Source of the DNA: an uncultured Acidobacteriaceae bacterium
Lineage (GTDB): Bacteria; Acidobacteriota; Terriglobia; Terriglobales; Acidobacteriaceae
Assembly (NCBI GenBank): GCA_963843005.1
Contig: CAWJIW010000025.1
Span: 6,157-70,156, forward strand
DNA length: 64,000 nucleotides
Direction of reading: 5' to 3'
Part shown: piece after piece, positions 346 through 20,854 of the stretch
How the letters are laid out: every line of letters begins with the position of its first letter
Position numbering within the stretch: position 1 is the stretch's first letter
Position numbers and translations under genes: made by a program
The notes under the pieces: generated by a model
What the model saw: only the letters and a program-made list of their open reading frames with translations
What the model was told of the DNA's origin: nothing
Databases searched by the model: none

Positions 346-2481
346 ATGATGAAAATACGTATTGCTCTTCTGCTGCTGTGCGTTCTTACGCTCGGCTTAG
401 GCAGTTTTGCCTTTGCCGACGAAGGTATGTGGCTGTTTAACGCTTTTCCCAAAGACAAGGTGCAGGCCAAGTACGGCTTCGCTCCCGATCAGGCCTGGCT
501 CGATCACGTTCGCCTTTCCTCTGCCCGTGCGCCCAACGGGTCGTCATCCTTTGTTTCTCCTGACGGATTGATCTTTACCAATCATCATATTGCGCAGGGC
601 TGCGTTCACGATCTTTCCACTAACGGCAAGGACTACATGAAGAACGGCTTCTACGCGCCGACCCAGGCGGAAGAGCCCAAGTGTCCGGGCGTGGAGTTCG
701 TGGTGCTGGAAGGCATTGAGGACGTGACCGAGAAGGTGAATGCTGCGGCCAAGCCCGGCATGTCGGACGCTGACGCCGGCAAGGCGCAGCGCGAGGTGAT
801 GGGAACTCTAGAGAAGGATTGCTCGACCGGCGGCATGCGCTGCGATGTAGTCACGCTCTATTCCGGCGCGATGTACAACCTGTACAAGTACAAGAAGTAT
901 GACGACATCCGCCTGGTTTTTGCGCCCGAGTTCGATATAGCGTTTTTCGGAGGCGATCCCGATAACTTCGAATATCCGCGCTACGATCTCGACATCTCCT
1001 TCTTCCGGGCGTATGAGAACGGGCAGCCCGCCAAGATCAATGACTATCTGAAGTGGTCGCCAACCGGAGTGAAGGAAGGCGATTTGGTCTTCGTCTCCGG
1101 GCATCCCGGTCGCACCGGCCGCTTGCTCACCATGGACCAGCTCGCGTTCCTGCGCGAGGTGCAGTATCCCTGGCAGATCAAGTCGCTGGCCCGCCGCGTT
1201 GATGTATTGCAGAAGTTCAGTGCGGCGTCGGCAGAGAATGCGCGCCAGGCCGAGAGTGATCTGTTCAGTCTCCAGAATGCTTTCAAGGCATACAACGGGT
1301 ACCAGGGCGGTCTGCTCGACAAAGACTTGATGGCCAAGAAAGCTGCCGACGAGAAGGCCCTGCGCGACTTCGTGAACTCCGATGCCAAGCGCAAACAGGA
1401 GTTCGGGGACCCGTGGGCGGAGATCACCAAAGCCACCGCTGCCGAGAGACCGTTCTTCCTGCCGTTCGTTTACCTCGACAACCTGGCCGGCTTCCGCGGA
1501 CAGCTCGCCGCCTATGCCCGTACCATCGTGCGGTCTACGGGAGAAAAGCAGAAGCCCAGCAACCAGCGCATCCGTGGTTTCCAGGATTCGGCGCTACCCA
1601 CGTTGGAGCAGCGGCTGTTCTCCACGGCTCCGGTTTACAAGGGGCTCGACCAGGTGCTGCTGGCGGAGAGCCTCTCTGAAATGCAGGACAATCTTGGCGC
1701 AAACAACGACACCGTCAAGATGGTGCTGGCCGGCAAGTCGCCGGACGAGCGTGCGAAAGAGCTGATTGACGGCACCAAGCTTGACGACGCCGCCTTCCGC
1801 AAACAGCTTTACGAAGGAGGCAAGGCCGCAGTGGATGCCAGCAACGATCCCCTGATCGTGGTGATGCGCGAAGTCGAGCCGCAGGCCCTGGCGCTTCATC
1901 AGCGCAACGAGGATGAAGTCGAGTCGGTCCTGCGCCGCAACGGCACTCAGATCGGCAAGGCCCTCTTCGCCAAGGACGGGCTCAACGTTCCTCCCGACGC
2001 CACGTTCACCCTGCGTTTGAGTTATGGCGCCATCGAAGGCTACAAGCTCAACGGCAAGAAGGTCCCGTGGTTCACCACCATGGGAGGCGCTTACGAGCAT
2101 GCCGCCAAGCACGGCAGCAAACCTCCGTATGAGTTGCCGGAAAGCTGGGTGAAGTACAAATCCGCCATCAACCCCAGCACTCCGTTCGACACCGCCTCCA
2201 CACCCGATATCATCGGGGGCAACTCCGGCAGCCCGATGATCAACAAAAACGCCGAAGTGGTGGGAATCATCTTCGACGGAAACATCGAGTCGCTGCCCTG
2301 GAACTTCGAGTACAGCGACAAGGTTGGGCGCTCGGTGGAAGTGGACTCGCGGGCGATCATCGAGTCGCTGCGCAAGATCTACCACGCCGATGCGCTGGCT
2401 AACGAGCTCACCGCTTCCGAACCGGGAGCGATGAAGCCCAACCCGCAAAACAAAATGACGAAGCCCGCGACCAAGCAGTAA
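346..2481 (+). CDS. S46 family serine dipeptidyl-peptidase (DPP7/DPP11-like), secreted
   Basis: Signal peptide MMKIRIALLLLCVLTLGLGSFAFA followed by DEGMW. Contains TNHHI (His) and GGNSGSP (Ser) contexts typical of S46. Start moved from the track start 262 to ATG 346. Confidence 0.85.
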   Translation: MMKIRIALLLLCVLTLGLGSFAFADEGMWLFNAFPKDKVQAKYGFAPDQAWLDHVRLSSARAPNGSSSFVSPDGLIFTNHHIAQGCVHDLSTNGKDYMKNGFYAPTQAEEPKCPGVEFVVLEGIEDVTEKVNAAAKPGMSDADAGKAQREVMGTLEKDCSTGGMRCDVVTLYSGAMYNLYKYKKYDDIRLVFAPEFDIAFFGGDPDNFEYPRYDLDISFFRAYENGQPAKINDYLKWSPTGVKEGDLVFVSGHPGRTGRLLTMDQLAFLREVQYPWQIKSLARRVDVLQKFSAASAENARQAESDLFSLQNAFKAYNGYQGGLLDKDLMAKKAADEKALRDFVNSDAKRKQEFGDPWAEITKATAAERPFFLPFVYLDNLAGFRGQLAAYARTIVRSTGEKQKPSNQRIRGFQDSALPTLEQRLFSTAPVYKGLDQVLLAESLSEMQDNLGANNDTVKMVLAGKSPDERAKELIDGTKLDDAAFRKQLYEGGKAAVDASNDPLIVVMREVEPQALALHQRNEDEVESVLRRNGTQIGKALFAKDGLNVPPDATFTLRLSYGAIEGYKLNGKKVPWFTTMGGAYEHAAKHGSKPPYELPESWVKYKSAINPSTPFDTASTPDIIGGNSGSPMINKNAEVVGIIFDGNIESLPWNFEYSDKVGRSVEVDSRAIIESLRKIYHADALANELTASEPGAMKPNPQNKMTKPATKQ

Positions 2482-2503
2482 TAGCTCCGGTCGGGTGAAG
2501 CAA

Positions 2504-2540
2504 GCGGTCGCGGCACAGAGTGTCGCGATCGCATTTTCTT
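2504..2540 (+). terminator. Candidate intrinsic terminator after the S46 gene
   Basis: 9-bp stem gcggtcgcg/cgcgatcgc (one G-U pair), 11-nt loop, then attttctt. Confidence 0.45.
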
Positions 2541-2613
2541 GTGCGTTGGTCACCGGAGCGTTTCAAGCCGGCTTTGCGCTCTGCTATTCTTTTCATCTTC
2601 CCGGAGGGTCAGC

Positions 2614-4667
2614 GTGAGATTCAAGACGTTCCTGCTGTTTTCCTTTTTGCTCACCGCCAGCGTGTTCGCTCAGCAAGCAAAACCGCCTGAAATGCGGGTT
2701 GAGCCCGTGCTGCCATACACGCCCGGCCTTGACGTCACGGCCATGGACCGCTCCGTCGATCCCTGCGTGGATTTCTACGCCTACTCTTGCCGCGGCTGGG
2801 AAAAGAAGAACTCCATTCCGCCCGACCAGGTCCGCTGGGGCGTTTACTCCAAGCTATACCAGGACAATCTCAACTTTCTGCGCAGCATTCTCGAGCAGGC
2901 GTCGACGGCCAAAGACCGGGATGCGGTCACGCAGAAGATTGGCGATTACTACGCCGCCTGCATGGATGAGGCCGCCGTCGAGAAGCTTGGCGCCAAACCG
3001 ATGCAGTCTGAACTAAACCAGATCCAGGCGCTCAAAAGCACGCGGGAAATGGCGCCGCTGGTGGCTCGCCTGCATCTGGCCGGAGACTCCATGCTGTTCG
3101 ACAGCGGGTCCATGCAGGACCCCGACAATTCAGACGCGATGATTGTGGCCCTGAATCAAGGCGGTCTCGGCCTTCCCGATCGCGACTACTACACCAAGGA
3201 CGACGATAAATCGAAAGAAATCCGCGCGCGTTACCTGCAGCATGTGCAGAAGATGTTCGAGCTTCTGGGCGACCCGCCGGCCACGGCAAAACAGGAAGCC
3301 GATACCGTGATGCGCATTGAGACTGGATTCGCGAAGGCCTCGCTGACCCAGGTAGAACAGCGCGATCCCTACAAAATTAAGAACAAGATGAAGGTGGCGG
3401 AGCTCAACACTCTCGCGCCCAACTTCGATTGGGGCGCGTACTTCTCCGCCAGCCAGGTCCCTCCGTTCGAAATTCTGAACGTTGACGCACCCGCGTTCTT
3501 CAAGGACGTCAATTCGCAACTGGCGTCGGTTTCACTCTCCGACTGGAAGAGCTACCTGCGTTTTCACGTTGCGAACACGCGCGCGCCATATCTCTCCTCG
3601 GCCTTCGTCAACGAAAACTTCGACTTCTATAGCAAGTACCTGCATGGGGCGAAGGAGTTGCGTCCGCGCTGGAAGCGCTGCGTACAGTACGTGGACAACC
3701 AGTTGGGAGAGGCTTTAGGACAGGAGTATGTCCGCAAGACATTTTCGCCCGAGCTGAAGGCCGCGACGCTCACCATGACCCAGCAAATTGAGGAAGCTAT
3801 GGCCGTGCGCATCCAGCAACTCGACTGGATGAGCCCCGCAACCAAACAGCAGGCGCTCACCAAGCTGCACGCCATCCGCAACAAGATTGGCTATCCCGAT
3901 AAGTGGCGCGACTACAGCTCGGTCACCATCGTCCGCGATGATTTCTACGGCAACGCCATGCGGGCCGAAGAATTCGAGAACCATCGCGAGTTCAACAAGG
4001 TTGGTAAGCCCGTGGACCGCGGTGAGTGGGACATGACACCGCCCACCGTGGACGCCTACTTCAACCCGCAGATGAACGACATCAACTTTCCTGCCGGCGT
4101 TCTGCAGCCGCCGCTGTATGACGCCAAGATGGACGACGCGCCCAACTATGGCAACACCGGCTCGACCATTGGGCATGAACTAACGCATGGCTTCGACGAC
4201 GAAGGCCGGCAGTACGATGCCAAAGGCAATCTGAAAGACTGGTGGACCAAGCAGGACGCCGAGCAGTTCGTGAAGCACGCGGACTGCGTGGTGGACCAAT
4301 ACGCGCAGTACGTCGTGGTGGACGACATCCACATCAACTCAAAGCTGACCGAGGGTGAAGATGTCGCCGATCTGGGCGGCACGATTCTGGCCTACATCGC
4401 GTGGAAGAACGCCGACAAGAACAAGCAACTCATCGACCAGGAGGGGTTGACTCCGGACCAGCGTTTCTTCGTCGGCTTCGCGCAATGGGCCTGCCAGAAC
4501 GACCGTCCTGAGGACCTGCGTGCGCGCGCCATCACCGATCCGCATTCGCCGGCCAAGTACCGCATCAACGGCGTGGTGGTGAACATGCCAGAATTCGGGA
4601 CGGCATTCTCTTGCAAGCGGGGTCGCCCATGCTGAAGCCGGCAGATAAGGTGTGCAAGGTGTGGTGA
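2614..4667 (+). CDS. M13 family zinc metallopeptidase (PepO / endothelin-converting-enzyme-like), one apparent frameshift at the C-terminus
   Basis: HELTHGFDDEG (HExxH) and GEDVADLGG motifs. GTG 2614 follows GGAGGG and opens a signal peptide (VRFKTFLLFSFLLTASVFAQQ). The track ORF stops at 4635, but the next frame reads GSPMLKPADKVCKVW* (TGA 4665-4667), the canonical M13 C-terminal CxVW. Confidence 0.85.
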
Positions 4668-4870
4668 GTGGTTTAGCGCTCAGCAAAGTAGCGGTCGTGC
4701 TCCTCGCTGATGTCGCTGTGACCACTGCCGACCTTTGCAGGAGTAATTCGGAAGGGGCCGCGTGGACGCAGATATCCCCGCTTGGATATCCGTCGCAGCA
4801 CTCTTTCCAGCTTTGACGTCTTGGGAGCGCGTTTCATAGCACGAGAATTATAACTGACGTCAGATCTCGC

Positions 4871-6270
4871 TCACCCGAACAACCGCATCAGTCCCTTCGC
4901 CGGAAGGTCAGGCACCTGGAACTTACGATCGCTCAGCGCCTCCGCGGCGCCGTAACCGCTGCGCACCGCGCCTTCCATGGTGGAGGGCCAGCCTGTGGCC
5001 GTCCAATCGCCCGCGAAGAAGAGGCGCGGCCAGGGGCTGTTGTGTGACGGACGATAGGCATCGCCGCCGGGCACCGGCGAGAACGTCGCATGCACTTCCT
5101 TCACCACAGTGGACTTCGTCAGCTTGGCCTCGCGCGCCGCCGGAAAGAATTCCGCCAAGTTCCCTGACCGCGAGTTCGATGATCTCTCCGCGTGGCTTCT
5201 CGACCAGCGTTTTCGATGAGCTGACCACCAGCTCGAGGTAGCTGCCGTTCTGCGCCGATTCCCTGCGCGTCGCCAGTATCTTCGACTTGTGGAACATCCA
5301 CTGGATGGTCCGCTCCAGCAGCACCGCATGTTCCAGCGGCGTGATTTCGCGGTCAAACCACAAATGAATGCCGGTGATGGGAGAAGTTTCGAAGTTGCGC
5401 AACTGGTGGCGCAAGGTCGCGAGTTCGGGCGCATCGGGCAACAGCTTCTCCACGCCGCTGAAGGGGGTCGCGATGATCGCATAGTCCGCGCGCAGTTCCT
5501 CCCCGCCAACGCACAGCCGCACACCATCGACATCGCAGCGGACGGTGTCGATGGCCGCTCGCAGATGCACCTGGCCGCCGCGGGCTTCGATGTACTGCGC
5601 GGCCGTCCCATAGAGCTGTGACAACGGCACCGCCGGCACGCCCATGCGTCCCGCCTCAGCCGATTTGAGGAACGAATCGCGAAAGACCAGTGCGGCGTAC
5701 CGAACCGAAACGCGATCGAGATCTTCGTTCAGCGCGCTGATCAGCACTGGCGCCCAGAAGCGGTCAATCGCCTTCTGCGTCTGCCCGTGACGTAAGAGCC
5801 ACGACAGGAAATTCTCGCCGCTATCCTTCGGCAACGCCGGCGCCATTGCCAGCATCGCACGCGCGATTGCCAGTTTGTCCTTCAGGTCGAGTACGGTTGA
5901 CCCCAGGAACGCTGGCGCAGCGTGCATCGGCGGCTGGCAACGCGCCCGGCTTCAGCGTGGAGGAGCGCCCGCCGGGAAGAATAAACGTGATCTCGTCGTA
6001 CCAGCGGATTTGCTGCTCGACTCCGAGCCGGCGATAGAACTCGATGAGGTTGGTGCAGCAGCCCAGCAGCACGTGCTGGCAGTTGTCCACGACTTCACCC
6101 GTGCCGGGTAGCTCGTAGGAGGAGGCGCGGCCGCCGAGGTAGGGGCGCCGCTCGAACAGCTCGACGCCATATCCCGCGTCGGCCAATGCGCTTCCGGCGG
6201 AGAGTCCAGCCAGTCCGCCGCCAACGATGGCGACCGTCGCACGCTGCGGATTGGGATCGGCCGAACTCAT
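4871..6270 (-). CDS. hpnE: Squalene-associated FAD-dependent desaturase HpnE (two apparent frameshifts)
   Basis: N-terminus ATVAIVGGGLAGLSAG (FAD Rossmann motif). Track ORFs 5821-6270, 4923-5927 and 4871-5611 are consecutive pieces of one amine-oxidase-fold protein, with breaks near 5930 and 5150. ATGA overlap with hpnD. Sits in hpnC-D-E order. Confidence 0.8.
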
Positions 6271-7214
6271 GTGAAGCGCCGCAGAAATCCCTTCCCCAGC
6301 ACCGCGAGTTTTTCGGCGGTACTCAGCCGCACCTTTTCGGAGAACACGTCATAGTTGCGGGCCGCAATCTTCTCCAGCAACCGGCGGTAGATTTCCACCA
6401 GCGCCCACAACGCGGGCTGGCTCTCCTCGTCTACCAGCGGCAGAAGCTCTTCGGCATCACGGTAGTACTGGCGCGCGCGTTGCGCTTCGAAGACCAATAC
6501 CGGGCGCAGCGATGTGGCCGCCGAGCCGTTGCACAGCGCCTGCGCGCTCAGCCCAAAGCTGGCAAGATCCTCCCGTGGCAGGTAGACGCGCCCCATCTCC
6601 GCGTCCTCTTTCACGTCGCGAATGATGTTGGTGAGCTGGAAGGCCACGCCGGTGTGCTCAGCCAGCTTCTCGGCCCGCGGATCGCGATAGCCGAAGATGC
6701 GAATGCAGATCAGCCCGACCACCGACGCCACGTGGTAGCAATAGTCGTAAAGCTGGTCGAAGGTTTCGTACTGTAGCTGCGGGAGAGCACCCGGCGCTGG
6801 TTTTGCGGCAGCGCCCGGCTCCGGCAAGTCCATCTCGGTCCCGTGCACCAACTTCTCCAGCAGATCGAGTGGGATGTTGTAGCGCTTCTGCGCGTCGGCC
6901 AGGGCAAACAACACGGGATCGTCGGTGCGCTCGCCGGCGGCCACGCGGCGCAATTGGTTGAGCCATTCGTCCAGCTTTTCGCGGCGCTGTTGCGGCGGAA
7001 TCGAGGGATCGTCGGAGATGTCGTCGGCGCGCCGCATGAAGGCATACACGGCCGAGATGGCATTGCGTTTGTGCCTGGGAAGGACCAGAAAGCCGTAGTA
7101 GAAGTTCTTGGCCGCCGAGCGGGCGATGTGCCGGCAGACGGAATACGCAGCCCGCAATTGCAGCGGGTGCTCGCTCACAGCAACTTCCTGACGGCCGCTC
7201 CCGCGACCAGCCAT
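6267..7214 (-). CDS. hpnD: Presqualene diphosphate synthase HpnD (squalene/phytoene synthase family)
   Basis: 315-aa intact ORF of the SQS/PSY family (YAFMRRADDISD, IIRDVKED). Lies between hpnC and hpnE. Confidence 0.85.
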   Translation of the reverse strand: MAGRGSGRQEVAVSEHPLQLRAAYSVCRHIARSAAKNFYYGFLVLPRHKRNAISAVYAFMRRADDISDDPSIPPQQRREKLDEWLNQLRRVAAGERTDDPVLFALADAQKRYNIPLDLLEKLVHGTEMDLPEPGAAAKPAPGALPQLQYETFDQLYDYCYHVASVVGLICIRIFGYRDPRAEKLAEHTGVAFQLTNIIRDVKEDAEMGRVYLPREDLASFGLSAQALCNGSAATSLRPVLVFEAQRARQYYRDAEELLPLVDEESQPALWALVEIYRRLLEKIAARNYDVFSEKVRLSTAEKLAVLGKGFLRRFT

Positions 7215-8224
7215 AGTTTGCGCGGTTTGGAAATCACCGGGCGGCGCTTCAGCACATCGTAGCCTTGCCGTTCAATGGCGTTCAGGATTTCCAGCCCGCC
7301 CCGGCTGAACAACTCAATGTCGAGCGCCAGATGTTTGTCCACCATCCTGGGGAGCGGCAGCCCCTGGGCAAACCAATCGCGCGCACGCGCGACCTCAAAC
7401 TTCATCATCTCCAGAAACGCCGGACTGGCGCGGCGCTCGGCGATGTCGCCTTCGCTGACGCCATACTTCGCCAGGTCTTCCAACGGCAGATAGATTCGTC
7501 CCTTGCCATAGTCCACGGCGACATCCTGCCAGAAGTTCGCCAGTTGCAGCGCCGTGCAGGTGTAGTCGGAAAGCTTCTGCCGCTCCGCATCGCGGTAGCC
7601 GCAGAGGTACAACACGAGGTGGCCGACCGGGTTCGCAGAATAACGGCAATATCCCAGGACATCGTCAAAGGTGGGATAGCGGGTGACCGTCTGGTCCTGC
7701 CGAAAGGCGGTCAGGAGATCCGCAAATGGCTGGCGTGGAATGTCACACTGCCGGATCGTCTCCCGCAACGCGATGAACACCGGGTGGCGCGGACTCACTC
7801 GATTTGGCGCCGGAAAATCAGCCTCCAGCTTTTCCACGTCTTTCGAGATATCTTTTGCCGGTGGCTCGACCAGGCTCAAATACGTGGCATTCAGTTCGGA
7901 TTCCCAAGCGTCCAGCAATGCCAGCGACTGTTGCGGATTGCCGACTTCATCGCCCAGATCATCGGAGATCCGGCAATAGGCATACACGTTGTAGAAATTC
8001 TGGTGCAGGTGTTTGGGCAGAAACCAGGTAACAACGGAAAAATTTTCGTAATGCGAGTGCGCCAGTCGCGCGCAATACTGCTGCGCCTCCGCTAGCGAGG
8101 GGGCGCGCTCCGGAATGGCATACTCCGGCGGCAGAGACCGCCAGCCCGCAGCAGCGCTCGCCGCGGAAGCAGGCACGTCCGGCTGGAAGGTATCAACCCG
8201 ATTGTCAGTCGGAGCGGAGCACAT
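7175..8224 (-). CDS. hpnC: Hydroxysqualene synthase HpnC (squalene synthase family)
   Basis: 349-aa intact ORF of the SQS/PSY family (YAYCRISDDLGD, NFWQDVAVDY). First gene of the hpnCDE trio. Confidence 0.85.
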   Translation of the reverse strand: MCSAPTDNRVDTFQPDVPASAASAAAGWRSLPPEYAIPERAPSLAEAQQYCARLAHSHYENFSVVTWFLPKHLHQNFYNVYAYCRISDDLGDEVGNPQQSLALLDAWESELNATYLSLVEPPAKDISKDVEKLEADFPAPNRVSPRHPVFIALRETIRQCDIPRQPFADLLTAFRQDQTVTRYPTFDDVLGYCRYSANPVGHLVLYLCGYRDAERQKLSDYTCTALQLANFWQDVAVDYGKGRIYLPLEDLAKYGVSEGDIAERRASPAFLEMMKFEVARARDWFAQGLPLPRMVDKHLALDIELFSRGGLEILNAIERQGYDVLKRRPVISKPRKLWLVAGAAVRKLL

Positions 8225-8248
8225 GAGGTGGAGATGGTCCCGGACGGT

Positions 8249-9286
8249 TTATGTTCCCGGGATAATGGCCGTCTTGATCTCGCCGTTACGGTTGAGCATG
8301 TGACGCAACACCTGTTGCAAGCGCGACAGCGGCGCCTCGCCGGTAATGTAGTCGGTCCCCTTGATTTTCTTTTCGCAGATGAGTGAGAACGCCTTGCGCA
8401 CCGTCTCCGGCGTGTGATGGAAGGTGGCCTTCAGCGTCAACTCGTTGTAATGCAGCCGCTGGGTGTCCAGAGCGACCGTAGTTCCGTTGGCGCAACCGCC
8501 GAAGAAGTTGACGGTGCCACCCTTGCGCACCATGTCAATGGACCACTCCCACGCCTGGGGACGCCCCACCGCCTCGATCACCACATCGCAACCGCGGAAA
8601 TCGGGAGTCAGCTTGCGCACCGCCTTCACCGGGTCATCCACCGCCGTAATCTGGACCGTGCTGTCCGCGCCTATGCGGCGGGTGGCCGACACCTGCGAAT
8701 CGCGCTTGACCACTGAGATCACGTTACAGCCGCTCAGCTTGGCCACCTGCACAAACATCAATCCGATGGGGCCGGCGCCGATGACCGCCACCGAGTCACC
8801 GATTTCCATCTTGGTTTCGTGCAGTCCCCGCAGCACGCAGGCCAGCGGTTCAACCATCGCCGCCTCTTCGAAGCTTACGTGTTTCGGGATCGCCAGCATG
8901 TTGGTCTCGACAATGCGACGAGGAATGCGAATGTATTCGGCATAGGCGCCGTTGTTGAACAGCAGGTCCTGACAGAGGTTTTCCTGGTGCTTGGAGCAAT
9001 AGAAACAAAGACCGCAGGGCGCGGAATTCAGCGCCACCACCCGCATGCCCTTCTTGAATCCCTTAACGTTGGGCCCGACTTCTTCGATCACACCGGCCAA
9101 TTCATGGCCAAACAGGGCGGGCGGCACGATCATGCGCGCGTGGTACCCGCGCTGATATACCTTCAGATCGGTACCGCAGGTCAGGGCCACCGAGACCTTG
9201 ACCAGCACTTCCCCTTCCTCCAACGTGGGAATGGGGACGCGCTCGATTTTGACATCCTCTTTGCCATAGAGGACAGCCGCTGTCAT
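8249..9286 (-). CDS. Zn-dependent MDR dehydrogenase (sorbitol/threonine-dehydrogenase-like)
   Basis: Catalytic Zn context CGTDLK...GHE. Structural Zn Cys cluster CGLCFYCSKHQENLC. GAGPIGL Rossmann motif. ATG 9286 (MTAAVLYGK) preferred over GTG 9298. Confidence 0.85.
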   Translation of the reverse strand: MTAAVLYGKEDVKIERVPIPTLEEGEVLVKVSVALTCGTDLKVYQRGYHARMIVPPALFGHELAGVIEEVGPNVKGFKKGMRVVALNSAPCGLCFYCSKHQENLCQDLLFNNGAYAEYIRIPRRIVETNMLAIPKHVSFEEAAMVEPLACVLRGLHETKMEIGDSVAVIGAGPIGLMFVQVAKLSGCNVISVVKRDSQVSATRRIGADSTVQITAVDDPVKAVRKLTPDFRGCDVVIEAVGRPQAWEWSIDMVRKGGTVNFFGGCANGTTVALDTQRLHYNELTLKATFHHTPETVRKAFSLICEKKIKGTDYITGEAPLSRLQQVLRHMLNRNGEIKTAIIPGT

Positions 9287-9299
9287 GTGTCCGTTCACT

Positions 9300-10418
9300 C
9301 TATTGGTCCTTCCATGAGCTGCCCGGTTGAATGACGACTTTCATCGAGTCTGGCTTGGGATGGGCAGCCAAATGCAACGCCTCGACAGATTCCGCCAGCG
9401 GGAAGCGATGGCTGATAAGCCGCTCCAATTCCATTTCCCGGCCAAGTACGAAACGGGCTGACTCTTCCTGCAAATCCACAGAAGCGCTGTATGAACCCAA
9501 GAGACTCTTTTCATCAACGCAAACGGCTGCGGGGTCAATCGTTGCCTCGCCGTGCTGGGTTTGCGCAAACAGCAACACCCGCCCCCCGGGACGCACCGCG
9601 TCCATGGCTGGGCGAATAAGACCATTACCCGCTACTGCCAGTATGACTGCGTCCGCCCCCCGGCCCTCTGTGCAAGCTTTGACCAGTTTCACGGTATCGG
9701 AAGTGGACGCGTCGATGTTTTCGTTCAGATCGAACGCTTGCGCTATTGTATGCCTCTGCGCAAACAAATCGGAAGTTATTACCCGCGCCCCGCAGCGGCG
9801 CGCCAAGACCGCCAGTATGATGCCGATCGGTCCCTGACCGATGACCAGCACCGTCTCGCCCTGCGTAAGTCTAAGCGTTTCAATGCCTTTCATGCAGGTA
9901 TTCACAGGCTCGATAAATGCCGCCTGCTCGAACGAGACTCCATCTGGAATGGCCACCACGCCCTTGCGGACGATCCATTCCATCACCCGGACATACTCGG
10001 AAAACCCGCCGCCGCTAGGCTCATAGCCCGCGGTTGCCCCCACCTTCTTGTACATGGGACACTGGGCGAAAACCTTATGCCGGCAGTAGTAGCATCCGCC
10101 GCAAGGGATGTGATGGAACACCATCACGCGGTCTCCAATACCGTACCCGGAAACCCCCTGGCCGATTGCGGCCACGGTCCCAGTCGTCTCGTGGCCAAAA
10201 ATGCGCGGCGCCGAGTGGGATCCGGTAGCAATCTTCTTGAGGTCGGTGCCGCAGATTCCGCAAGTGTGAACCCGTACCAGGATCTCGCCCGGGCCGATTT
10301 CCGGAACGGGTACCGTCTCCAGGCGAACATCGTTGATCCCGTGGTACACCACCGCCTGCATGGTCGAGGGGATCCTCAGTCGCCCAGTTGTACTGCCAAG
10401 TTGTGTTGCAACCGACAT
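9300..10418 (-). CDS. Zn-dependent MDR dehydrogenase (second, divergent paralogue)
   Basis: CGICGTDLK, GHE, CGGCYYCRHKVFAQC and GQGPIGI motifs. An alternative start at ATG 10361 (MQAVVYHG) is possible. Confidence 0.85.
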   Translation of the reverse strand: MSVATQLGSTTGRLRIPSTMQAVVYHGINDVRLETVPVPEIGPGEILVRVHTCGICGTDLKKIATGSHSAPRIFGHETTGTVAAIGQGVSGYGIGDRVMVFHHIPCGGCYYCRHKVFAQCPMYKKVGATAGYEPSGGGFSEYVRVMEWIVRKGVVAIPDGVSFEQAAFIEPVNTCMKGIETLRLTQGETVLVIGQGPIGIILAVLARRCGARVITSDLFAQRHTIAQAFDLNENIDASTSDTVKLVKACTEGRGADAVILAVAGNGLIRPAMDAVRPGGRVLLFAQTQHGEATIDPAAVCVDEKSLLGSYSASVDLQEESARFVLGREMELERLISHRFPLAESVEALHLAAHPKPDSMKVVIQPGSSWKDQ

Positions 10419-10436
10419 TCGAATTGCCCCGCCCGG

Positions 10437-11141
10437 TCAGGACAGGGGCACTTTCTCCTCTCGACGAATGCTCGAATGATTGTTAATTAGATGTTTCACC
10501 GCGTCGCTCAGGTTCACGGAAGCCACTCTGCTATTGGCCCTTAACTGGTTCACCGCCGGCCACCATTGCGGTCGCACCGCGATGTGTGCGACAAAGCGGA
10601 GCAGGCCAAGTCTTCCACTTTCCTCGATGAAATCCGCCAGCGGCGGCATCACGAATTCAGCTTCGTCGGAGATGGCCTTCACGGCTGCGAAGCCGAAGCC
10701 GTGTTCGCGCGCCACCTGTGCCACAGCCGCTGCTTCCATGTCTACCACGTCCGCGCCGTATTGCTCCCGAAGTTGCCTCTTGGTCTCAGGACTGCTGACT
10801 GCCAGAACCGAGGCGACTACCCACTCCCCGCCTTGCGCCGGATAGCGCTCACCAGTCTCAGCGTCCACAACCTCGCGCGCCCAACCGACATCGCCGACCT
10901 TCAACTGCGGCGACGCGGCGCCGGCGATGCCCGCGGAGACCAGCAGCTCGGGTCGAGCGTAGCGCAGGAGCGCTTCAGCGGCGCGACGCCCCGCCATCCG
11001 CCCGATGCCGCCTAGCGCCACGAGAGCGGAATCCACCTCGAACAGCTCGACTCCTCCGACCCGTTGCGCTCTCCGGCCCCGCAGCAGGGGCGCCAACTCC
11101 GTTCGCAAAGCGGCAACCACACCGATTGGTCTATCCGGCAT
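10437..11141 (-). CDS. hpnG: Hopanoid-associated phosphorylase/nucleosidase HpnG (PNP_UDP_1 family)
   Basis: MTA/SAH-nucleosidase-like sequence (IGVVAALRTE..., VDMEAAAVAQVA, KAISDEA). ATG 11141 overlaps the hpnA stop (ATGCCGGATAG). Operon context. Confidence 0.7.
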   Translation of the reverse strand: MPDRPIGVVAALRTELAPLLRGRRAQRVGGVELFEVDSALVALGGIGRMAGRRAAEALLRYARPELLVSAGIAGAASPQLKVGDVGWAREVVDAETGERYPAQGGEWVVASVLAVSSPETKRQLREQYGADVVDMEAAAVAQVAREHGFGFAAVKAISDEAEFVMPPLADFIEESGRLGLLRFVAHIAVRPQWWPAVNQLRANSRVASVNLSDAVKHLINNHSSIRREEKVPLS

Positions 11142-12119
11142 AGCCGTTCGCCCGAAACCACTCCACCGCCCGTCGCAGGGCCTCATCCACGGGCCCCGGA
11201 TTCCATCCCAGCTCACGCTCTGCCTTGGCGCTGGTGACGTACATCTTCTTGCGTCCGATGCGCACGGCGTCTAGCGTAACCCGCGGTTCGCGCTTCATCA
11301 TCCTGCCGGTCACCAGCGTGTCCACAAAGCCGGTAGCAAACGCGACTGCATACGGCAGCTTGACCTTCGGCGAACCCAGGCCGGTGATCGCGGCCAGCTT
11401 GTCGAGAATCTGCTTGAGGGACAGGTTTTCGCCACCCAGGATGTAACGCTGGCCGGGTACGGCTTTCTCCATGGCCAGCAGATGTCCTTTTGCGCAATCC
11501 ACCACGTCAACCAGGTTCAAGCCTGTATCCACATACGCAGGGAACTTGCGCCGCAGAAAATCCACCACGATCTGTCCGGTCGGCGTGGGCTTGATATCGC
11601 GCTCTCCGATGGGCGTAGTCGGATTCACGATCACCACATTCTGCCCCGCCTGCGCCGCCTCAATCGCCAGTCGCTCCGCCATGAACTTGCTGCGCTTGTA
11701 GTCGCCAATCATGTTGGAGATGGTGACCGGCGTACCCTCGTCGGTAAGCCTGCCGTTGTTGCCGAAGCCCATGGTGGCAACGCTGCTGGTATAGATAACC
11801 CGCCGCACGCCGGTATGTCTCGCCGCTTGCAGGAGGTTGCGAGTACCTTCCACGTTGGAGTCGTAGAGCTCCTGCCCGTTGCGGGCCCAAAGCCGGTAGT
11901 CGGCGGCCACGTGAAAGACAAACTCACATCCCGCCATGCCGTTCTTCAGCGATTCGAGATCGCGCAGATCGCCGATCACGCGCTCGGCGGGAAGGTCCGC
12001 GATGTTGTCGGTGCGACTGGTCGGGCGCACCAGCAGGCGCAATCTGCGCCCCTTGCCAGCAATTGTCGCGCAACGTGGCTGCCCAGAAATCCAGTCGCGC
12101 CTGTGACGAAGCATTTCAT
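11131..12119 (-). CDS. hpnA: Hopanoid-associated NAD-dependent sugar epimerase/dehydratase HpnA (one apparent frameshift near 12050)
   Basis: True N-terminus MKCFVTGATGFLGSHVARQLLARG lies in track ORF 11976-12311. The rest (LRLLVRPTS...HVAADYRLW...) lies in 11131-12114. Confidence 0.75.
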
Positions 12120-12125
12120 ATGTCG

Positions 12126-12235
12126 GTGGTCAGTGGCCGTAGTCCGTTGCCAGTAGTCAGGGAGTTCGCGCTGGATAACCCAGCCGATTGTCGTTCGGGT
12201 CGCTGAAAACTGACAACTGGCTACTGACAACTCGA
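12126..12235. repeat. Heptamer (CAGTTGY / RCAACTG) arrays in inverted orientation between shc and hpnA
   Basis: ggtcagtggccgtagtccgttgccagtagtcag on one side and aactgacaactggctactgacaactcg on the other. Confidence 0.6.
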
Positions 12236-12240
12236 TTTGA

Positions 12241-14232
12241 TCAATCCATGCGACGATTGCCGCGTGCGATCCGCAATTGTTCCTCCTGGTTCGCCGCCGA
12301 CGCCTTGCCATAAGCCGTTAAGGCGAGCAGGGGGAAATACTGCCGGTACATGTAGTACATCAGGTAGAACACGCGAGGAAATCCGGTGCCGGTATAGAGC
12401 GACTCATCCCACGATCCGTCGCGCTGCTGGGTTTTCAACAGGTAGGCGACGCCGCGCTGGAGTGAATCGCTGCGGGTGTCGTTGGCGGCCAGCAGGCCCA
12501 TCACCGCCCAGGCTGTCTGCGAAGCCGTGCTCGGCCCCAGGCCCCTGGTGTTGGGATCGTCATAGGAATCGCACCGCTCACCCCAGCCACCGTCGGGATT
12601 CTGCATCATGCGCAGCCATTCCACCGCCTGCTGCACAAAGGGCTCGTGATAATCGACGCCCACCGCCTCCAGCCCGCGCAGCACCAGCATGGTGCCGTAG
12701 ATGTAGTTGACGCCCCAGCGCCCGAACCACGAACCGTCGGGCTCCTGCTCACGCTTGATGAACTCGATGGCGCGGCGCACCGGCCCGTCCTTCAGCGAAT
12801 ATCCGTAGCTCGCCAGGCACTCCAGCACGCGGCCGGTGATGTCCACCGTCGCGGGATCGAGCATGGCGTTGTGGTCGGCAAACGGAATCTGCTGGAAGAC
12901 CATGCGGTTGTTGTCTTTGTCGAACGAGGCCCAGCCGCCGTTCTTGCACTGCATGGACAGGACCCAATCCAGCGCGCGCTGCACCGACTTGTCGTGATAG
13001 CTCTCGTTGCTGGTCTTGACCCGGCTCAACGCCAGCATTACCTGGGCGCTGTCGTCCACGTCGGGATAAAACTCATTGTTGAACTCGAAGTACCAGCCCG
13101 CCGGGGCGGCCTTGCGGTTCTTCACGCACCAATCGCCACGACGGGTGACCTGCTTCTTCAGCATCCACTCGCACGGCTGCACCAGGCGCGGATCGTTGGC
13201 CGCCACTCCGCTTTCCGCCAGGGCGAAGACGGCATACGCGGTGTCCCAGACCGGTGACATGCAGGGCTGCATCCGGAAGGTACTTTCTTCCTCGATGCCG
13301 AGCCTCTCGAATTCATCCATCGCGCGGATCACCTGCGGATCGTCCAGCGAGTACCCCAGGCAGCGCAACGCGATGATGGAGTTCATGATGCCGGGATAGA
13401 TGGCTCCCAAACCATCGCTCATCTCCAGGCGCTCCAGCATCCACTTCTCCGCCACCTTGATGGCCTGCGACCGCAGCGGCCTCACATGCACGCGCTCCAG
13501 GAAGTGCACCATGCGGTCCAGCACCAGGAAGAAATTGCGCCAGCTGATGAGCTTCTCAGCCCAGTGCAGCCGCAGCCGGCTCTTGCTGCGTCCGCCGACG
13601 AAAAGCTCGTCAATCCCGTGCTCGGGCGGGATCTTCTTGAACGGCTTCTTGGCGTAGGCAATGGAGAGCGGCACCAGGATGGCCCGCGACCAGGACGAAA
13701 TCTCGTAGATGTTGAACCAGAACCATTTGGGAAACAGTACGATCTCGGGAGGAATCGCCGGGACCGCGTCGTAGTCGTATTGCCCCAGGAAGCAGAGGTA
13801 AATCTTGGTGAAGGTGTTGACTTCGGTCACGCCGCCGAGGGCGAGAATGCGCTCACGCGCCTTCTTGAGTTGGGGGTGATCGGGGCTGTAGCCGGCCATC
13901 TTCAGCGCAAAGTAGGCCTTCACCGAGGCGCTGATATTGGAGGGGCCTTCGTTGAAGATCGGCCAGCCGCCATCGGCGTTCTGGCGGTTCAGGATCTCGT
14001 TGGCGCACTTCTGGGTGCGCCCCGCATCCTCAGTCCCCAGAAGCCGGTGCAGCAGGATGTAATCGGAAACCAGGGTCGTGTCCGCGCCTAGTTCGCCGCA
14101 CCAGTAGCCTTCTTCGCGGTCCTGAAGCGAGAACAGGTAGCGCCGCGAGGCGTCGATTGCCGCGGCCACCCGGCTCTTGATGTCGTCAATCTTGCCGAAG
14201 CGCATTTCGGCAGGATTGTGGGGGTCTGCCAT
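12241..14232 (-). CDS. shc: Squalene-hopene cyclase
   Basis: 663-aa intact ORF. DxDD-type catalytic motif in YPDVDDSAQV. Repeated QW-type motifs (e.g. QNADGGWP, QNPDGGWG, QQRDGSW). Confidence 0.95.
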   Translation of the reverse strand: MADPHNPAEMRFGKIDDIKSRVAAAIDASRRYLFSLQDREEGYWCGELGADTTLVSDYILLHRLLGTEDAGRTQKCANEILNRQNADGGWPIFNEGPSNISASVKAYFALKMAGYSPDHPQLKKARERILALGGVTEVNTFTKIYLCFLGQYDYDAVPAIPPEIVLFPKWFWFNIYEISSWSRAILVPLSIAYAKKPFKKIPPEHGIDELFVGGRSKSRLRLHWAEKLISWRNFFLVLDRMVHFLERVHVRPLRSQAIKVAEKWMLERLEMSDGLGAIYPGIMNSIIALRCLGYSLDDPQVIRAMDEFERLGIEEESTFRMQPCMSPVWDTAYAVFALAESGVAANDPRLVQPCEWMLKKQVTRRGDWCVKNRKAAPAGWYFEFNNEFYPDVDDSAQVMLALSRVKTSNESYHDKSVQRALDWVLSMQCKNGGWASFDKDNNRMVFQQIPFADHNAMLDPATVDITGRVLECLASYGYSLKDGPVRRAIEFIKREQEPDGSWFGRWGVNYIYGTMLVLRGLEAVGVDYHEPFVQQAVEWLRMMQNPDGGWGERCDSYDDPNTRGLGPSTASQTAWAVMGLLAANDTRSDSLQRGVAYLLKTQQRDGSWDESLYTGTGFPRVFYLMYYMYRQYFPLLALTAYGKASAANQEEQLRIARGNRRMD

Positions 14233-14249
14233 CTTTCCTTTCTTACCTT

Positions 14250-15221
14250 CTACTCTGCCACGGCGGGCGCAGCGCCAATGGCTTCGACGATCTCGGGTGG
14301 CAATCCGAAGCGCACATTCTCGGGCATCACTTCCACCTCGCGCATGTTGGTAAAGCCCTGCGCTTCCAGGAAATCCACCGCTTCCTGCACCAATATCTCA
14401 GGCGCCGACGCGCCCGCGGTCAAACCGACGGTATTCACGTCCTGCAACCATTCGGGTTGAATCGAGCGATAGTTCTCGATCAAGTGGGCATTCGTCCCCA
14501 GGTTACGCGCGACCTCAACCAACCGGTTGGAGTTCGAGCTGTTGTCCGAGCCTACGACCAGCAGCAGATCACATTCAGCGGCTACGTCTTTCACTGCGGT
14601 CTGGCGATTCTCCGTGGCGTAGCAGATGTCCTGCGCGTGCGGCCCTTGGATGTTGGGAAACCGCTGGCGCAGGGCTTCGATCACATGACGGGTCTCGTCC
14701 AGGCTCAGCGTCGTCTGCGTCAAGTAAGCCACGCGGTCCGGATCGGGCACATGCAGGCTGTCCACCTCGTCCGGCGAGTCCACCACCTGGGTGACGTCTG
14801 GGGCTTCGCCGAGCGTGCCGATGACTTCGTCGTGGTCCCGATGGCCAATGAGAATCAACGAGTACCCCTCGCGGGCGAACTTTACGGCCTCCACGTGGAC
14901 CTTGGTCACCAGCGGGCAGGTCGCATCAATCACCCGCAGCTCGCGGAGTTTGCTGGAGTCCCGCACCTCGGGAGCTACGCCGTGCGCGCTATAAATAACC
15001 CGCTCGCCGGCCGGAACTTCCTGGACGCTGTCCACAAAGATAGCGCCCTTGGCACTCAGTTCGTCCACCACGTAGCGATTGTGGACGATCTCCTTGCGGA
15101 CGTAGATCGGCGCTCCGAAGGTGTCCAGGGCAATGCGGACAATATCAATGGCGCGCACCACGCCCGCGCAGAAGCCCCTGGGCTTCAATAGAAGTAAGGT
15201 CTTGCCAGAACTTTGAGTCAT
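14250..15221 (-). CDS. ispH: 4-hydroxy-3-methylbut-2-enyl diphosphate reductase
   Basis: 323-aa intact ORF with typical LytB/IspH sequence (PRGFCAGVVRAI, IYVRKEIVHN, ATCPLVTKVH). Confidence 0.92.
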   Translation of the reverse strand: MTQSSGKTLLLLKPRGFCAGVVRAIDIVRIALDTFGAPIYVRKEIVHNRYVVDELSAKGAIFVDSVQEVPAGERVIYSAHGVAPEVRDSSKLRELRVIDATCPLVTKVHVEAVKFAREGYSLILIGHRDHDEVIGTLGEAPDVTQVVDSPDEVDSLHVPDPDRVAYLTQTTLSLDETRHVIEALRQRFPNIQGPHAQDICYATENRQTAVKDVAAECDLLLVVGSDNSSNSNRLVEVARNLGTNAHLIENYRSIQPEWLQDVNTVGLTAGASAPEILVQEAVDFLEAQGFTNMREVEVMPENVRFGLPPEIVEAIGAAPAVAE

Positions 15222-15430
15222 TCTCTTGCTGTCCAGTATATGGGCGGAAGCCCGGCTTTCCCCACGATTACTCTATTGTAACAGTGCCGGAATCACCAAT
15301 GTAACGACCTGAAATGGCGCAATTTAGCAGCTTAAACGCGCAAATTTCGCAGCCAACGGCGCAGACGCTAGCGCGGCTGGAAGCCGGCTGCGGGTTACCG
15401 TGAGCACCCCTACAGGTAGCCCTGAAGAAT

Positions 15431-15478
15431 TGTCATCCGGAGCGAGGACTGCAGTCCGAGTTGAGGTATCTGCTTTTC
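15431..15478. repeat. Family C element, half copy (TGTCATCC-GAGCGA head)
   Basis: tgtcatccggagcgaggactgcagtccgagttgaggtatctgc. Close match in reverse orientation at 57789-57831. Confidence 0.6.
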
Positions 15479-15890
15479 TGATTCGTACGATGTGGCAGGA
15501 CACGAAAGATAGGCCCTCGGTTCGGCCGGAGCATGGTTTACGGAACAAGCTCTGGGAACCAGCCTGGATTCGTCCAGCACTTAGTTGCATACGCCCCACC
15601 CTTACTCAAATCCGCAAGAATTATTCAAAAGGATAGTTACTACTATCCGCGTAGATAGCCTCGACCAACCATAAGCCCGCCGGCGACCCATCGCAACTCA
15701 CTCCTAATAGCTGCATATCACTGCAAACATAGGAAACTCACCAAAGTAATGTCATCGTTCCCGGATTGGCACGCGTCGTGCCCTACCAGAATGCATAGCA
15801 GAAGGCCCCTGAAAGCAGAAAAGGCTTAAGGAGCTTGGCTGCAAACCACTTCAATCCGGGTTCCCAGGACAGGAGCCCCAAGGAGGAGTT

Positions 15891-19111: not shown

Positions 19112-20854
19112 CTACCGGTTTGCCTTCAGCATCTGCTCGGCGTGTTTCAGCGAGGTTCGGTGAGCTTGGCGCCGCTCATCATGCGCGCGATCTCGTGGGT
19201 GCGCTCTTCGGGATCGAGCGCCCGCACCGAGGTTTTCGTCCTGCCTCCGGCTTCCCGCTTCTCGATGAGCGTAATGCTGGTCGGCAAATGACGCGATCTG
19301 CGGCAGGTGGGTCACGCACAGCACCTGCTTGGTGCGCGAGAGCTGCTTCAGCTTCTTGCCGACGGCTTCGGCCGCGCGTCCGCCGATGCCGCTGTCGATC
19401 TCGTCGAAGACCAGCGTCCTCTGCTGACCCACCCTCTCGCCAGAACGGCGAGGGGTGGGGCACCCTCGCTAGAGTCCGCCGTTGCGCCTCGCGACTGCCC
19501 TGCCTGTCCCGCTTCGATAGTGGTCTTCAGCGCCAGCATCACCCGCGAGAGTTCGCCGCCGGAGGCGATCTCCTCCACCGGGCCCAGCGGCTCGCCGGGA
19601 TTGGCCGAGATCAGGTACTGCACCTGGTCGAAGCCGCGGGCCGTCCAGTTCCCTTCCTCGTCCGAGCCGCTGACCTCGACCTTGAAGCGCGCCTTCATCG
19701 CCAGCTCGTTGATCTCGCTTTCGACCTGCTTCTCCAGCTTGCGGGCCGCTTCGTAGCGCTGCCGCGAGAGCGCGCGCGCGGCGTCCAGATACGGTCGGCC
19801 GCGGCTTCGCCAGCTCGGTGCGCAGCTCGCGCAGGACTTCGTCCTTGTTCTCCATCTCGTTCAGCTTGCGTTCGAGTTCGTCGCCCAGCGCGATCACGTC
19901 TTCCAGCGTCGGGCCGTACTTGCGCTTCAGCCGGTCGAGCGCGGCCAGCCGGTCTTCCACCTCCGCCAGCCGCTCGGGCGAAGCCTCGATGCCTGCCGCA
20001 TAGTCGCGCAGGGTCTGCCCGATGTCCTCGACCGTGATGCGCGCCGAGTCCAGCTCGGCCAGCGGTTCGCGAAACTGCTCGTCGAAGCGCGACAGTTCTT
20101 CGATCTGCTTCGACGCCGCGCGGATGGAGGCTGCCGCCGACGCGTTGCTCTCGTACAGCGCGTCGTAGGCCGCCATGGCCGCGCCGTAAACCCGCTCGGC
20201 GTTGGCCAGCACGCGCTTTTCGGCTTCCAGCTTCGCGTCTTCCTCCGGCTGCAGGCGCGCGTCGGCGATCTCCTTGCGCTGGAAGCTCCACAGATCGAGC
20301 AGGCGCAGGCGGTCGTGTTCGTCGCGCTCCAGATCGGCGATGCGATGCCGCACCTGGTTCCACTGCGTCGAATGCCTTCGCCGTCGCGGCAGTGTCGACT
20401 CCGGCAAAGCATCCAGCAGCGCCAGGCGCGACGCCGGCATCGAAGGCCAGCACCGCCTCGTTCTGCGCATGGATCACCGCCAGGTGCGGCGGCCAGTTGC
20501 TTCAGCACCAGTCACCGTGGCGGGCTGGTTGTTGACGAACACGCGGCCCTTGCCGCCGGCGGCGATTTCGCGGCGCAGGATGAGCTGCTCGTCTTCGGCG
20601 TCAATGCCGTTGGCTTCCAGCACCGCGCGGATGGCCGTCGAATCGGCGTCGAAGACCGCGGCGACGATGGCTTTGTCGGTGCCGTGGCGGACGGCGTCGC
20701 TGGAGGCCTTGTCGCCCAGCAGCAGCGCGAGCGCGTCAATGAGAATGGATTTGCCGGCGCCGGTTTCGCCGGTCAGCAGGTTGAGACCGGGCGCGAACTC
20801 GACCGCGACGTTGTCGATGACCGCGTAGTTTTCGACCCGCAGTTCCAGCAGCAC
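19112..20854 (-). pseudogene. recN: DNA repair protein RecN, reading frame broken many times (real decay or sequence error unresolved)
   Basis: N-terminus MLLELRVENYAVIDNVAVEFAPGLNLLTGETGAGKSILIDAL (Walker A). Coiled-coil middle part. SGGELSRVMLALK signature, TLVFDEIDSGIGG (Walker B), VLCVTHLPQIA. The pieces are spread over track ORFs 20474-20854, 19927-20508, 19695-20477, 19469-20470, 19348-19698, 19112-19432 and a further frame near 19180-19290. Confidence 0.85.
19428..19470. repeat. Family B palindromic element lying inside the recN coding region
   Basis: cccaccctctcgccagaacggcgaggggtggggcaccctcgc. It lies between the ABC signature and Walker B. The frame changes within it. Confidence 0.6.

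Follow-up and report, generated by a model that had tools for sequence, protein, structure and literature searches.

A conserved pair of zinc-dependent dehydrogenases in the hopanoid gene block of Terriglobia, with a possible role in side-chain tailoring

Two dehydrogenase genes within a hopanoid gene block

We analyzed a 64-kb stretch of DNA from an uncultured soil bacterium of the Acidobacteriaceae (order Terriglobales; contig CAWJIW010000025.1 of assembly GCA_963843005.1; the whole stretch is called the window below). Its minus strand carries two adjacent genes for zinc (Zn)-dependent medium-chain dehydrogenases/reductases (MDRs), here named MDR1 and MDR2, inside a block of hopanoid synthesis (hpn) genes. 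Open reading frames (ORFs) together with Pfam and NCBIfam profiles gave the order ispH, shc, hpnA, an HpnG-like phosphorylase gene, MDR1, MDR2, hpnC, hpnD and hpnE (Table 1). The genes are tightly spaced, with 18 nt between the HpnG-like gene and MDR1 and 24 nt between MDR2 and hpnC. The gap between the two MDR genes is 1 nt if MDR2 begins at the GTG at 9298, which gives a protein of 349 residues, or 13 nt if it begins at the ATG at 9286, which gives 345 residues; many MDR2 homologues are 345 residues long, corresponding to the ATG start. The gene order and the tiny gaps that a first-pass annotation of this DNA had described around the dehydrogenases agree with these coordinates. No intergenic terminator-like site was found inside the ispH-to-hpnE block, and the counts of promoter-like and terminator-like sites were not above those of shuffled controls.

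Table 1. Genes of the hopanoid block, other features of the window, and loci in which the block is split (the last row refers to those loci, all other positions to the window).
Feature	Position	Strand	Description
ispH	14250-15221	-	4-hydroxy-3-methylbut-2-enyl diphosphate (HMBPP) reductase, first gene of the co-directional block; NF002189, 453 bits
shc	12241-14232	-	Squalene-hopene cyclase (SHC); TIGR01507, 774 bits
hpnA	11131-12114	-	Hopanoid-associated short-chain dehydrogenase/reductase (SDR) 'sugar epimerase'; TIGR03466, 449 bits, cut-off 368
HpnG-like gene	10437-11216	-	Nucleoside phosphorylase/nucleosidase (PNP_UDP_1); PF01048; directly upstream of MDR1
MDR1 (= ug1)	9300-10418	-	372-aa Zn-dependent medium-chain dehydrogenase; NAD(H)-type fingerprint ..RVITSD216L..
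MDR2 (= ug2)	8249-9298	-	Zn-dependent medium-chain dehydrogenase; NADP(H)-type fingerprint ..ISVV193K194R..
hpnC	7175-8224	-	Downstream of MDR2; TIGR03464, 335 bits, cut-off 250
hpnD-type gene	6267-7214	-	Presqualene diphosphate synthase; TIGR03465 best family, 269.8 bits, just below cut-off 278.6
hpnE	4871-6270	-	Hydroxysqualene dehydroxylase; TIGR03467 pieces in three reading frames
recN	19469-20508	-	Spread over three overlapping ORFs
IS110-family transposase gene	44286-45284	-	RNA-guided family
IS110-family transposase gene	47600-48667	+	RNA-guided family; also a weak match to the TIGR-Tas endonuclease model
Split loci L029, L030, L043, L051, L055, L056, L060, L062, L063, L069	~500-15500		Pair with hpnC-hpnD-hpnE, apart from ispH-shc-hpnA-hpnG

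The association of these two genes with hpn genes is not new, as it was published in 2017 under the names ug1 and ug2 (Sinninghe Damsté et al. 2017, Front Microbiol 8:968, PMC5462960). In that study, on SD1-SD3 Acidobacteria for these genes, the acidobacterial cluster C consists of hpnA-hpnG-ug1 and cluster A of ug2-hpnC-hpnD-hpnE, and its Table S1 describes ug1 as a 'Zn-dependent alcohol dehydrogenase (ca. 370 AA)' and ug2 as a 'Zn-binding alcohol dehydrogenase (ca. 350 AA)', both with the function 'Not established'. The window genes share their sizes, annotation, positions and phylum and are these genes. The published work differs from ours in that it took them as separate 'unknown genes' of two clusters and proposed no function for them; hpnA, and not ug1 or ug2, was proposed there for the conversion of ribosylhopane to bacteriohopanetetrol (BHT). 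What is new here is the recognition of ug1 and ug2 as one conserved pair, the split of the pair into NAD- and NADP-type members, its occurrence outside hopanoid clusters, and a specific functional proposal.

Family, zinc sites and cofactor fingerprints

Both proteins belong to the Zn-containing MDR superfamily by their domains, their catalytic zinc ligands and their Cys4 structural zinc lobe. MDR1 and MDR2 match PF08240 (ADH_N) with 87.6 and 88.5 bits and PF00107 (ADH_zinc_N) with 59.6 and 83.4 bits, respectively, all above the gathering scores. The catalytic motifs are intact: MDR1 has the ligands C56, H76, E77 and E170, the structural zinc cysteines C106, C109, C112 and C120, and GQGPIG at 194, and MDR2 (numbered from the ATG) has C37, H61, E62 and E146, then C91, C94, C97 and C105, and GAGPIG at 170. 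As the GxGxxG motif and all ligands can be read from the translations, the first-pass statement that both proteins keep their Zn ligands and a Rossmann motif is borne out. Both sets of catalytic ligands line up with the Cys/His/Glu motifs of 1e3j and 2d8a, and no homologue departs from them. The Cys4 lobe has been lost in two distant subfamily representatives, P0247 and P0260.

MDR1 and MDR2 are 31% identical to each other. Their best matches in the Protein Data Bank (PDB) are xylitol dehydrogenase, NADP(H) ketose reductase, sorbitol dehydrogenase and archaeal threonine dehydrogenase (Tdh), with E-values of 1e-32 to 1e-40, the best for MDR1 being the xylitol dehydrogenase 7y9p (124 bits); the likeness to sorbitol and threonine dehydrogenases that had been noticed at first reading was thus recovered. 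The pair shares with sorbitol and xylitol dehydrogenases and with 1e3j, the whitefly NADP(H) ketose reductase, the fold, the domains, the Cys-His-Glu(+Glu) zinc site and the GxGxxG motif. The alignment of MDR2 with 1e3j extends over 290 residues, in which the four structural cysteines line up and the NAD-specifying Asp is replaced in the same way. On the other hand, identity to the polyol dehydrogenases is only about 30%, the window proteins keep the Cys4 zinc, and MDR1 has DLKK, HHxPC and TAGFxPxGGG motifs of its own. TAG[FY]xPxGGG, DLKK and GSYS are signatures of the MDR1 subfamily. Known members of the polyol-dehydrogenase branch act on C2 of free polyols and ketoses.

Neither protein reached any NCBIfam equivalog cut-off. 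The best NCBIfam match of both is Tdh (TIGR00692/NF003808), with which they share the zinc ligands and the structural zinc lobe; however, the scores of 151/156 bits for MDR1 and 178/163 bits for MDR2 are far below the cut-offs of 458/380, no kbl partner is present here, and the gene context is that of hopanoids rather than threonine catabolism. The equivalogs for IolM (scyllo-inosose 3-dehydrogenase), galactitol-1-phosphate 5-dehydrogenase and L-idonate 5-dehydrogenase gave 93-152 bits against cut-offs of 450-550. By sequence, then, MDR1 and MDR2 are placed as new, uncharacterised members of the polyol/threonine-dehydrogenase branch of the MDRs.

Some unusual proteins were seen among the homologues. 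P0268 (602 aa) is a sugar-1-phosphate nucleotidyltransferase fused to an MDR1-subfamily dehydrogenase that is 37% identical to MDR1 and keeps the signature motifs, and it hints that some members of the subfamily act on sugar or polyol phosphates. It is the sole real fusion among the long MDR homologues, the others having MDR domains only, and a fusion of an MDR with HpnG was sought among them and not found. N-terminal tandem duplications occur in L085 (14-1231), where about 33 aa are repeated, and in P0001 (505 aa), which has two ADH_N stretches; errors of assembly or gene calling are their probable cause.

We also compared the end of strand beta-2, where the two types differ. MDR1-type proteins have Asp or Glu at this point (..TSD..) in about 170 of 171 homologues. 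In about 130 of 139 MDR2-type homologues, Val or Gly stands there instead, with Lys/Arg-Arg after it (..VVKR.., ..GRR..). In the alignment of MDR2 with 1e3j, V193-K194 stand opposite the 'ar' of 'ctars', which we take to be Ala199-Arg200, the residues conferring NADP preference. Because the fingerprints differ and are kept in the homologues, the pair combines an enzyme of the NAD(H) type with one of the NADP(H) type. This fingerprint-based split is a new point of the present analysis. IolG/IolW, which convert myo- to scyllo-inositol, and the fungal xylose reductase/xylitol dehydrogenase are two-enzyme NAD+/NADPH redox pairs in which NAD- and NADP-preferring enzymes are likewise encoded together and work one after the other on a single polyol. 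However, those enzymes belong to other families (GFO/IDH and AKR), and sequential action of MDR1 and MDR2 would be an analogy.

Conservation of the pair beside hopanoid genes

To describe the conservation of the pair, we used a genome set of 82 Terriglobales loci, in which MDR1 is 67-87% identical and onto which the window Hpn proteins were mapped, and a metagenome set of 80 loci with MDR1-like proteins 49-78% identical to window MDR1. The best 80 loci of the genome-contig scan were all from Terriglobia, and a metagenome scan from a non-hpn homologue as seed was added for breadth. The names of close homologues are Candidatus Korobacteraceae, Terriglobales and Acidobacteriota. MDR1 and MDR2 are adjacent in all 82 genome loci, and an HpnG-like gene lies directly upstream of MDR1 on the same strand in 70 of them; hpnC-hpnD(-hpnE) come next in nearly all genome loci with enough sequence. 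In the metagenome set, MDR1 is followed by MDR2 in 67 of the 68 loci with enough downstream sequence, hpnA is found upstream in 44 of 50, and hpnC or hpnD downstream in 42 of 44. With 82 genome loci and almost every one of the 80 metagenome loci showing it again, the arrangement is not a chance juxtaposition.

Most metagenome loci encode an SHC that is only 48-51% identical to that of the window. In these loci hpnH (TIGR03470, 441 bits) separates shc from hpnA, and hpnA is parted from MDR1 by an HpnG-like ORF. In 90% clusters, the HpnH proteins of these loci join proteins named Bryobacteraceae/Ca. Sulfopaludibacter or Ca. Acidiferrales/Acidoferrales, and the Bryobacteraceae-type loci have no adjacent hpnE. 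Further lineages, L089/L090 and L095, have the order shc-hpnH-hpnA-hpnG-MDR1-MDR2, with MDR1 54% identical and, in L089/L090, overlapping genes. L092 (1590-9072; also L093, L094 and L109) has ispH-hpnA-MDR1-MDR2-hpnD-shc, without hpnG between hpnA and MDR1, and neither hpnC nor hpnH was seen on the 11-kb contig of this type. If this lineage wholly lacks hpnH and hpnG, the pair cannot depend on ribosylhopane. Given the divergent SHC and the HpnH clusters of other orders, we conclude that hpnA-(hpnG)-MDR1-MDR2-hpnC-hpnD is kept across three Terriglobia orders, as a core block around which ispH, hpnH and hpnE vary. The linkage is stronger and wider than earlier documented.

Ten of the 82 genome loci are split (Table 1). 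In these, the ispH-shc-hpnA-hpnG block is inverted and parted from MDR1 by recN, adk and tonB-like genes, and MDR1-MDR2-hpnC-hpnD-hpnE remain one co-directional unit, so that the pair heads the squalene-synthesis operon.

Neighboring genes and state of the assembly

The gene upstream of MDR1 has TIGR03468 (HpnG) as its best family, with 91.6 bits against a cut-off of 187.1 bits, so that its earlier naming as hpnG holds for the best family and falls short of strict membership. The equivalent ORFs of other lineages score 90-168 bits, below the cut-off in all lineages checked; the acidobacterial HpnG-like proteins are a divergent branch missed by the curated model. Because HpnG is the best-scoring family and the gene follows hpnH-hpnA in related loci, its product probably works like HpnG. 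hpnH was looked for in the 64-kb window and not found.

The hpnE gene follows hpnD, as the first-pass annotation had it, and is broken across three reading frames in this assembly. Its pieces match profile positions 1-103, 104-358 and 332-428 of TIGR03467, and a tblastn search with the intact 494-aa orthologue from L001 placed residues 49-122 in frame -2, 137-400 in frame -3 and 399-493 in frame -1. The split reflects either assembly indels or a pseudogene; the closest genomes are 'MFD' metagenome-assembled genomes, probably from long reads, with contigs of up to 5 Mb. We did not adopt the reading of hpnE as a true pseudogene without further evidence. The gene is intact (494 aa) in an 86%-identical relative. 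The recN gene is likewise spread over three overlapping ORFs, a 333-aa piece of which matches profile positions 157-362 of 563, and this is a second sign of assembly frameshifts besides hpnE. Farther along the window, two genes for IS110-family transposases lie about 2.3 kb apart.

A possible role in side-chain tailoring

To turn ribosylhopane into BHT, a sugar-like head group has to be reduced from an aldose to a polyol. To our knowledge, the enzyme for this step has not come out of genetic work in Rhodopseudomonas, Methylobacterium, Burkholderia or Streptomyces. The activity has so far been seen in cell-free extracts alone, and no gene family is defined for it; in a cell-free system from Methylobacterium, the reduction of ribosylhopane reportedly used NADPH (work attributed to Bodlenner in 2015). 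Our literature search found no paper that assigns an enzyme to the step, and papers of 2025/2026 (PMC12583986, PMC13459092) either state that the enzyme is not established or call the step non-enzymatic, which agrees with the first-pass view that it has no assigned gene.

We propose the following explanation for the pair. That it has stayed between hpnG and hpnC through deep divergence speaks for a functional link with hopanoid synthesis, and the family of the enzymes points to a sugar-like substrate. Since the ribose-derived side chain is the sole sugar-like moiety in the pathway, side-chain tailoring is the role that we favor. We see MDR1 and MDR2 as co-inherited polyol-dehydrogenase-like Zn enzymes that are co-transcribed with the hopanoid genes of Terriglobia, and they would act by oxidation and reduction on the C5 side chain that C35 hopanoids derive from ribose. 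In the division of labor that we find most likely, MDR2, of the NADP(H) type, would take ribosylhopane, which the HpnG-like enzyme makes, and reduce its open-chain C-35 aldehyde, giving BHT. MDR1, of the NAD(H) type, would carry out an oxidation on the same head group, turning either the furanose hemiacetal into ribonylhopane, a lactone already known among hopanoids (PMC4263297), or a secondary hydroxyl into a ketone. We regard an action of the pair on hopanoid side chains of any kind as a real possibility that falls somewhat short of an even chance. That one of the two is the ribosylhopane reductase is plausible but seems rather unlikely to us, and if so MDR2 would be a better candidate than MDR1. 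The full division of labor, in which MDR2 would supply the missing step of Terriglobia and MDR1 a coupled oxidation to ribonylhopane or a keto intermediate, is offered in the same tentative spirit, with the odds clearly against it.

A number of observations weigh against this proposal. A single universal enzyme should be present in all BHT producers. [quoted passage not shown] For these two reasons the pair cannot be a universal reductase. HpnA, which is an NAD(P)-dependent oxidoreductase adjoining hpnG like the pair, is placed just as well for the missing reduction, for which the 2017 paper proposed it (PMC5462960); it differs from the pair in belonging to the extended SDR superfamily and in its much wider spread among hopanoid producers. 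The same paper records that Rhodopseudomonas makes BHT without hpnA and that Burkholderia cenocepacia is reported not to need hpnA for BHT. The characterised nearest relatives of MDR1 and MDR2 oxidise secondary alcohols or reduce ketones and ketoses, not aldehydes, and the invariant Lys61-Lys62 and His102-His103 of MDR1 suggest a polar, possibly anionic ligand. In addition, where the cluster is split, the pair stays with hpnC-hpnD-hpnE and not with hpnG.

Relatives outside hopanoid clusters count on the same side. The pair in L086 is 49%/53% identical to MDR1/MDR2 and has no hpn gene within 10 kb, its neighbors being rhamnosidase, Poly_export and acetyltransferase genes. A related pair in L091, also with no hpn gene within 10 kb, lies beside a heparinase II/III-type lyase, an enolase-superfamily (MR_MLE) protein and methyltransferases; its MDR1-like protein falls into one 90%-identity cluster with a protein that bears the name Chthonomonadaceae, and the lineage is assigned to Armatimonadota. 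A marine pair is 41%/46% identical, with no hpn gene on its short contigs of 5.9-7.3 kb (L087/L088), and Cyanobacteria carry a single unlinked MDR1-like gene, 42% identical, in unrelated contexts. No sampled homologue outside Terriglobia and contigs of unknown taxon showed hpn linkage. Co-localisation with hpn genes, which the first-pass annotation had offered as a check on its idea, is kept across three Terriglobia orders and is absent from the unlinked pairs and genes of other lineages. In an unbootstrapped neighbor-joining tree the earliest branches are those of the cyanobacterial and marine sequences, and the place of the Armatimonadota pair is beside the hpn-linked lineage of the L092 type.

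We then compared linked with unlinked proteins (71 with 10 for MDR1-like and 51 with 3 for MDR2-like proteins). Only 4 positions in MDR1 and 5 in MDR2 separate the two sets, being constant among the linked proteins and changed in the unlinked ones, and most of the changes are conservative; we therefore see no sign of a changed pocket. By contrast, 61 positions in MDR1 and 85 in MDR2 are invariant in both sets, including in MDR1 the subfamily-specific D59-x-K61-K62, H102-H103, the T129-G138 loop, N173 and K177. Because these positions are common to linked and unlinked proteins, all lineages share the chemistry and probably also the polar portion of the substrate. The ribosylhopane-reductase reading is a reasonable one, though the unlinked homologues and the usual chemistry of the family weaken it. 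Of the earlier suggestion that these two genes are candidates for the step, the polyol-type MDR family and the conserved hpn linkage stand, and the unlinked pairs and the BHT of C. thermophilum made without ug2 speak against it.

Alternative explanations

The most serious rival, which we rate as unlikely though not far behind in plausibility, is that the pair is an oxidoreductase module for a soluble sugar or polyol (or a sugar phosphate or sugar acid) that has the same substrate everywhere and never touches a hopanoid. It might, for example, interconvert a small carbohydrate by NAD+/NADPH coupling and be co-transcribed with hpn genes by co-regulation or historical accident. The pairs found without hpn genes fit this well, both those near rhamnosidases, a lyase, MR_MLE and Poly_export genes (L086, L091) and those on marine contigs, as do the single unlinked gene of Cyanobacteria, the fusion of the 37%-identical P0268 to a sugar-1-phosphate nucleotidyltransferase, the near identity of the active-site-bearing positions in linked and unlinked homologues, and the polar invariants Lys61, Lys62, His102 and His103. 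The nearest characterised enzymes also use small polyols, threonine or inosose. However, three Terriglobia orders have kept the pair in its place between hpnG and hpnC despite rearrangements, which is hard to explain without a functional tie, and the flanks of the unlinked pairs have no common neighbor that names another pathway. Moreover, Cyanobacteria as a phylum include many C35-hopanoid producers (bioRxiv 10.1101/2025.07.29.667474), so that absence of linkage is not absence of a hopanoid role.

Considerably less probable, in our view, is a sequential NAD/NADP epimerase acting on a secondary hydroxyl of the completed tetrol, for example at C-34 to give a BHT stereoisomer, or a role in partnership with HpnA on a head group that is joined to BHT afterwards; on both readings the pair would not be the ribosylhopane reductase. 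The strict NAD/NADP pairing is the pattern of known two-enzyme epimerisations such as IolG/IolW, and MDRs of the polyol-dehydrogenase type act on the C2 hydroxyl beside a primary alcohol. In addition, hpnA, MDR1 and MDR2 stay together even in loci of the L092 type, where no hpnG lies between them, and, as to composite bacteriohopanepolyols (BHPs), SD1/SD3 acidobacteria have hpnI and hpnJ and lack hpnK. Against this, the literature consulted ties no BHT stereoisomer or unusual head group to Acidobacteria, although the 2017 study used Rohmer degradation, which erases such information (PMC5462960), and sequential action of MDR1 and MDR2 would be a matter of analogy. We think it very improbable that the pair serves squalene synthesis, as a source of reducing power or a replacement of HpnE at the head of an MDR1-MDR2-hpnC-hpnD-hpnE unit. 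The hpnC or hpnD that follows MDR2 in 42 of 44 metagenome and nearly all genome loci, the ten split genome loci in which the pair and hpnCDE form a unit apart from shc-hpnA-hpnG, the Bryobacteraceae-type loci without adjacent hpnE, and the acidobacteria that lack hpnE or hpnC (PMC5462960) are all consistent with it. However, the HpnC/D/E route of Pan et al. 2015, as far as it is cited in PMC5462960, needs no NAD(P)-dependent alcohol dehydrogenase, and the 2017 authors called ug2 'not essential for squalene biosynthesis' (PMC5462960). Furthermore, MDR1 and MDR2 resemble polyol dehydrogenases with polar pockets, not enzymes for C30 hydrocarbons.

Significance

BHPs are major membrane lipids of bacteria and the source of the geohopanes that are used as molecular fossils. 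In the core of side-chain synthesis, ribosylhopane to BHT is the one step that lacks a gene, and Acidobacteria are probably a large source of the hopanoids of soil and peat. The conserved NAD/NADP pair between hpnG and hpnC in three acidobacterial orders offers two concrete proteins to assay. If free sugars turn out to be the substrate, the pair would be a warning against reading function from synteny in hopanoid clusters. If the pair does include the reductase, a gene would for the first time be assigned to a reaction left open ever since the side-chain pathway was drawn up, and no MDR before it would have been shown to act on a pentose bound to a triterpenoid. If instead another role on the side chain is true, the pair would mark a lineage-specific hopanoid modification with possible value as a biomarker.

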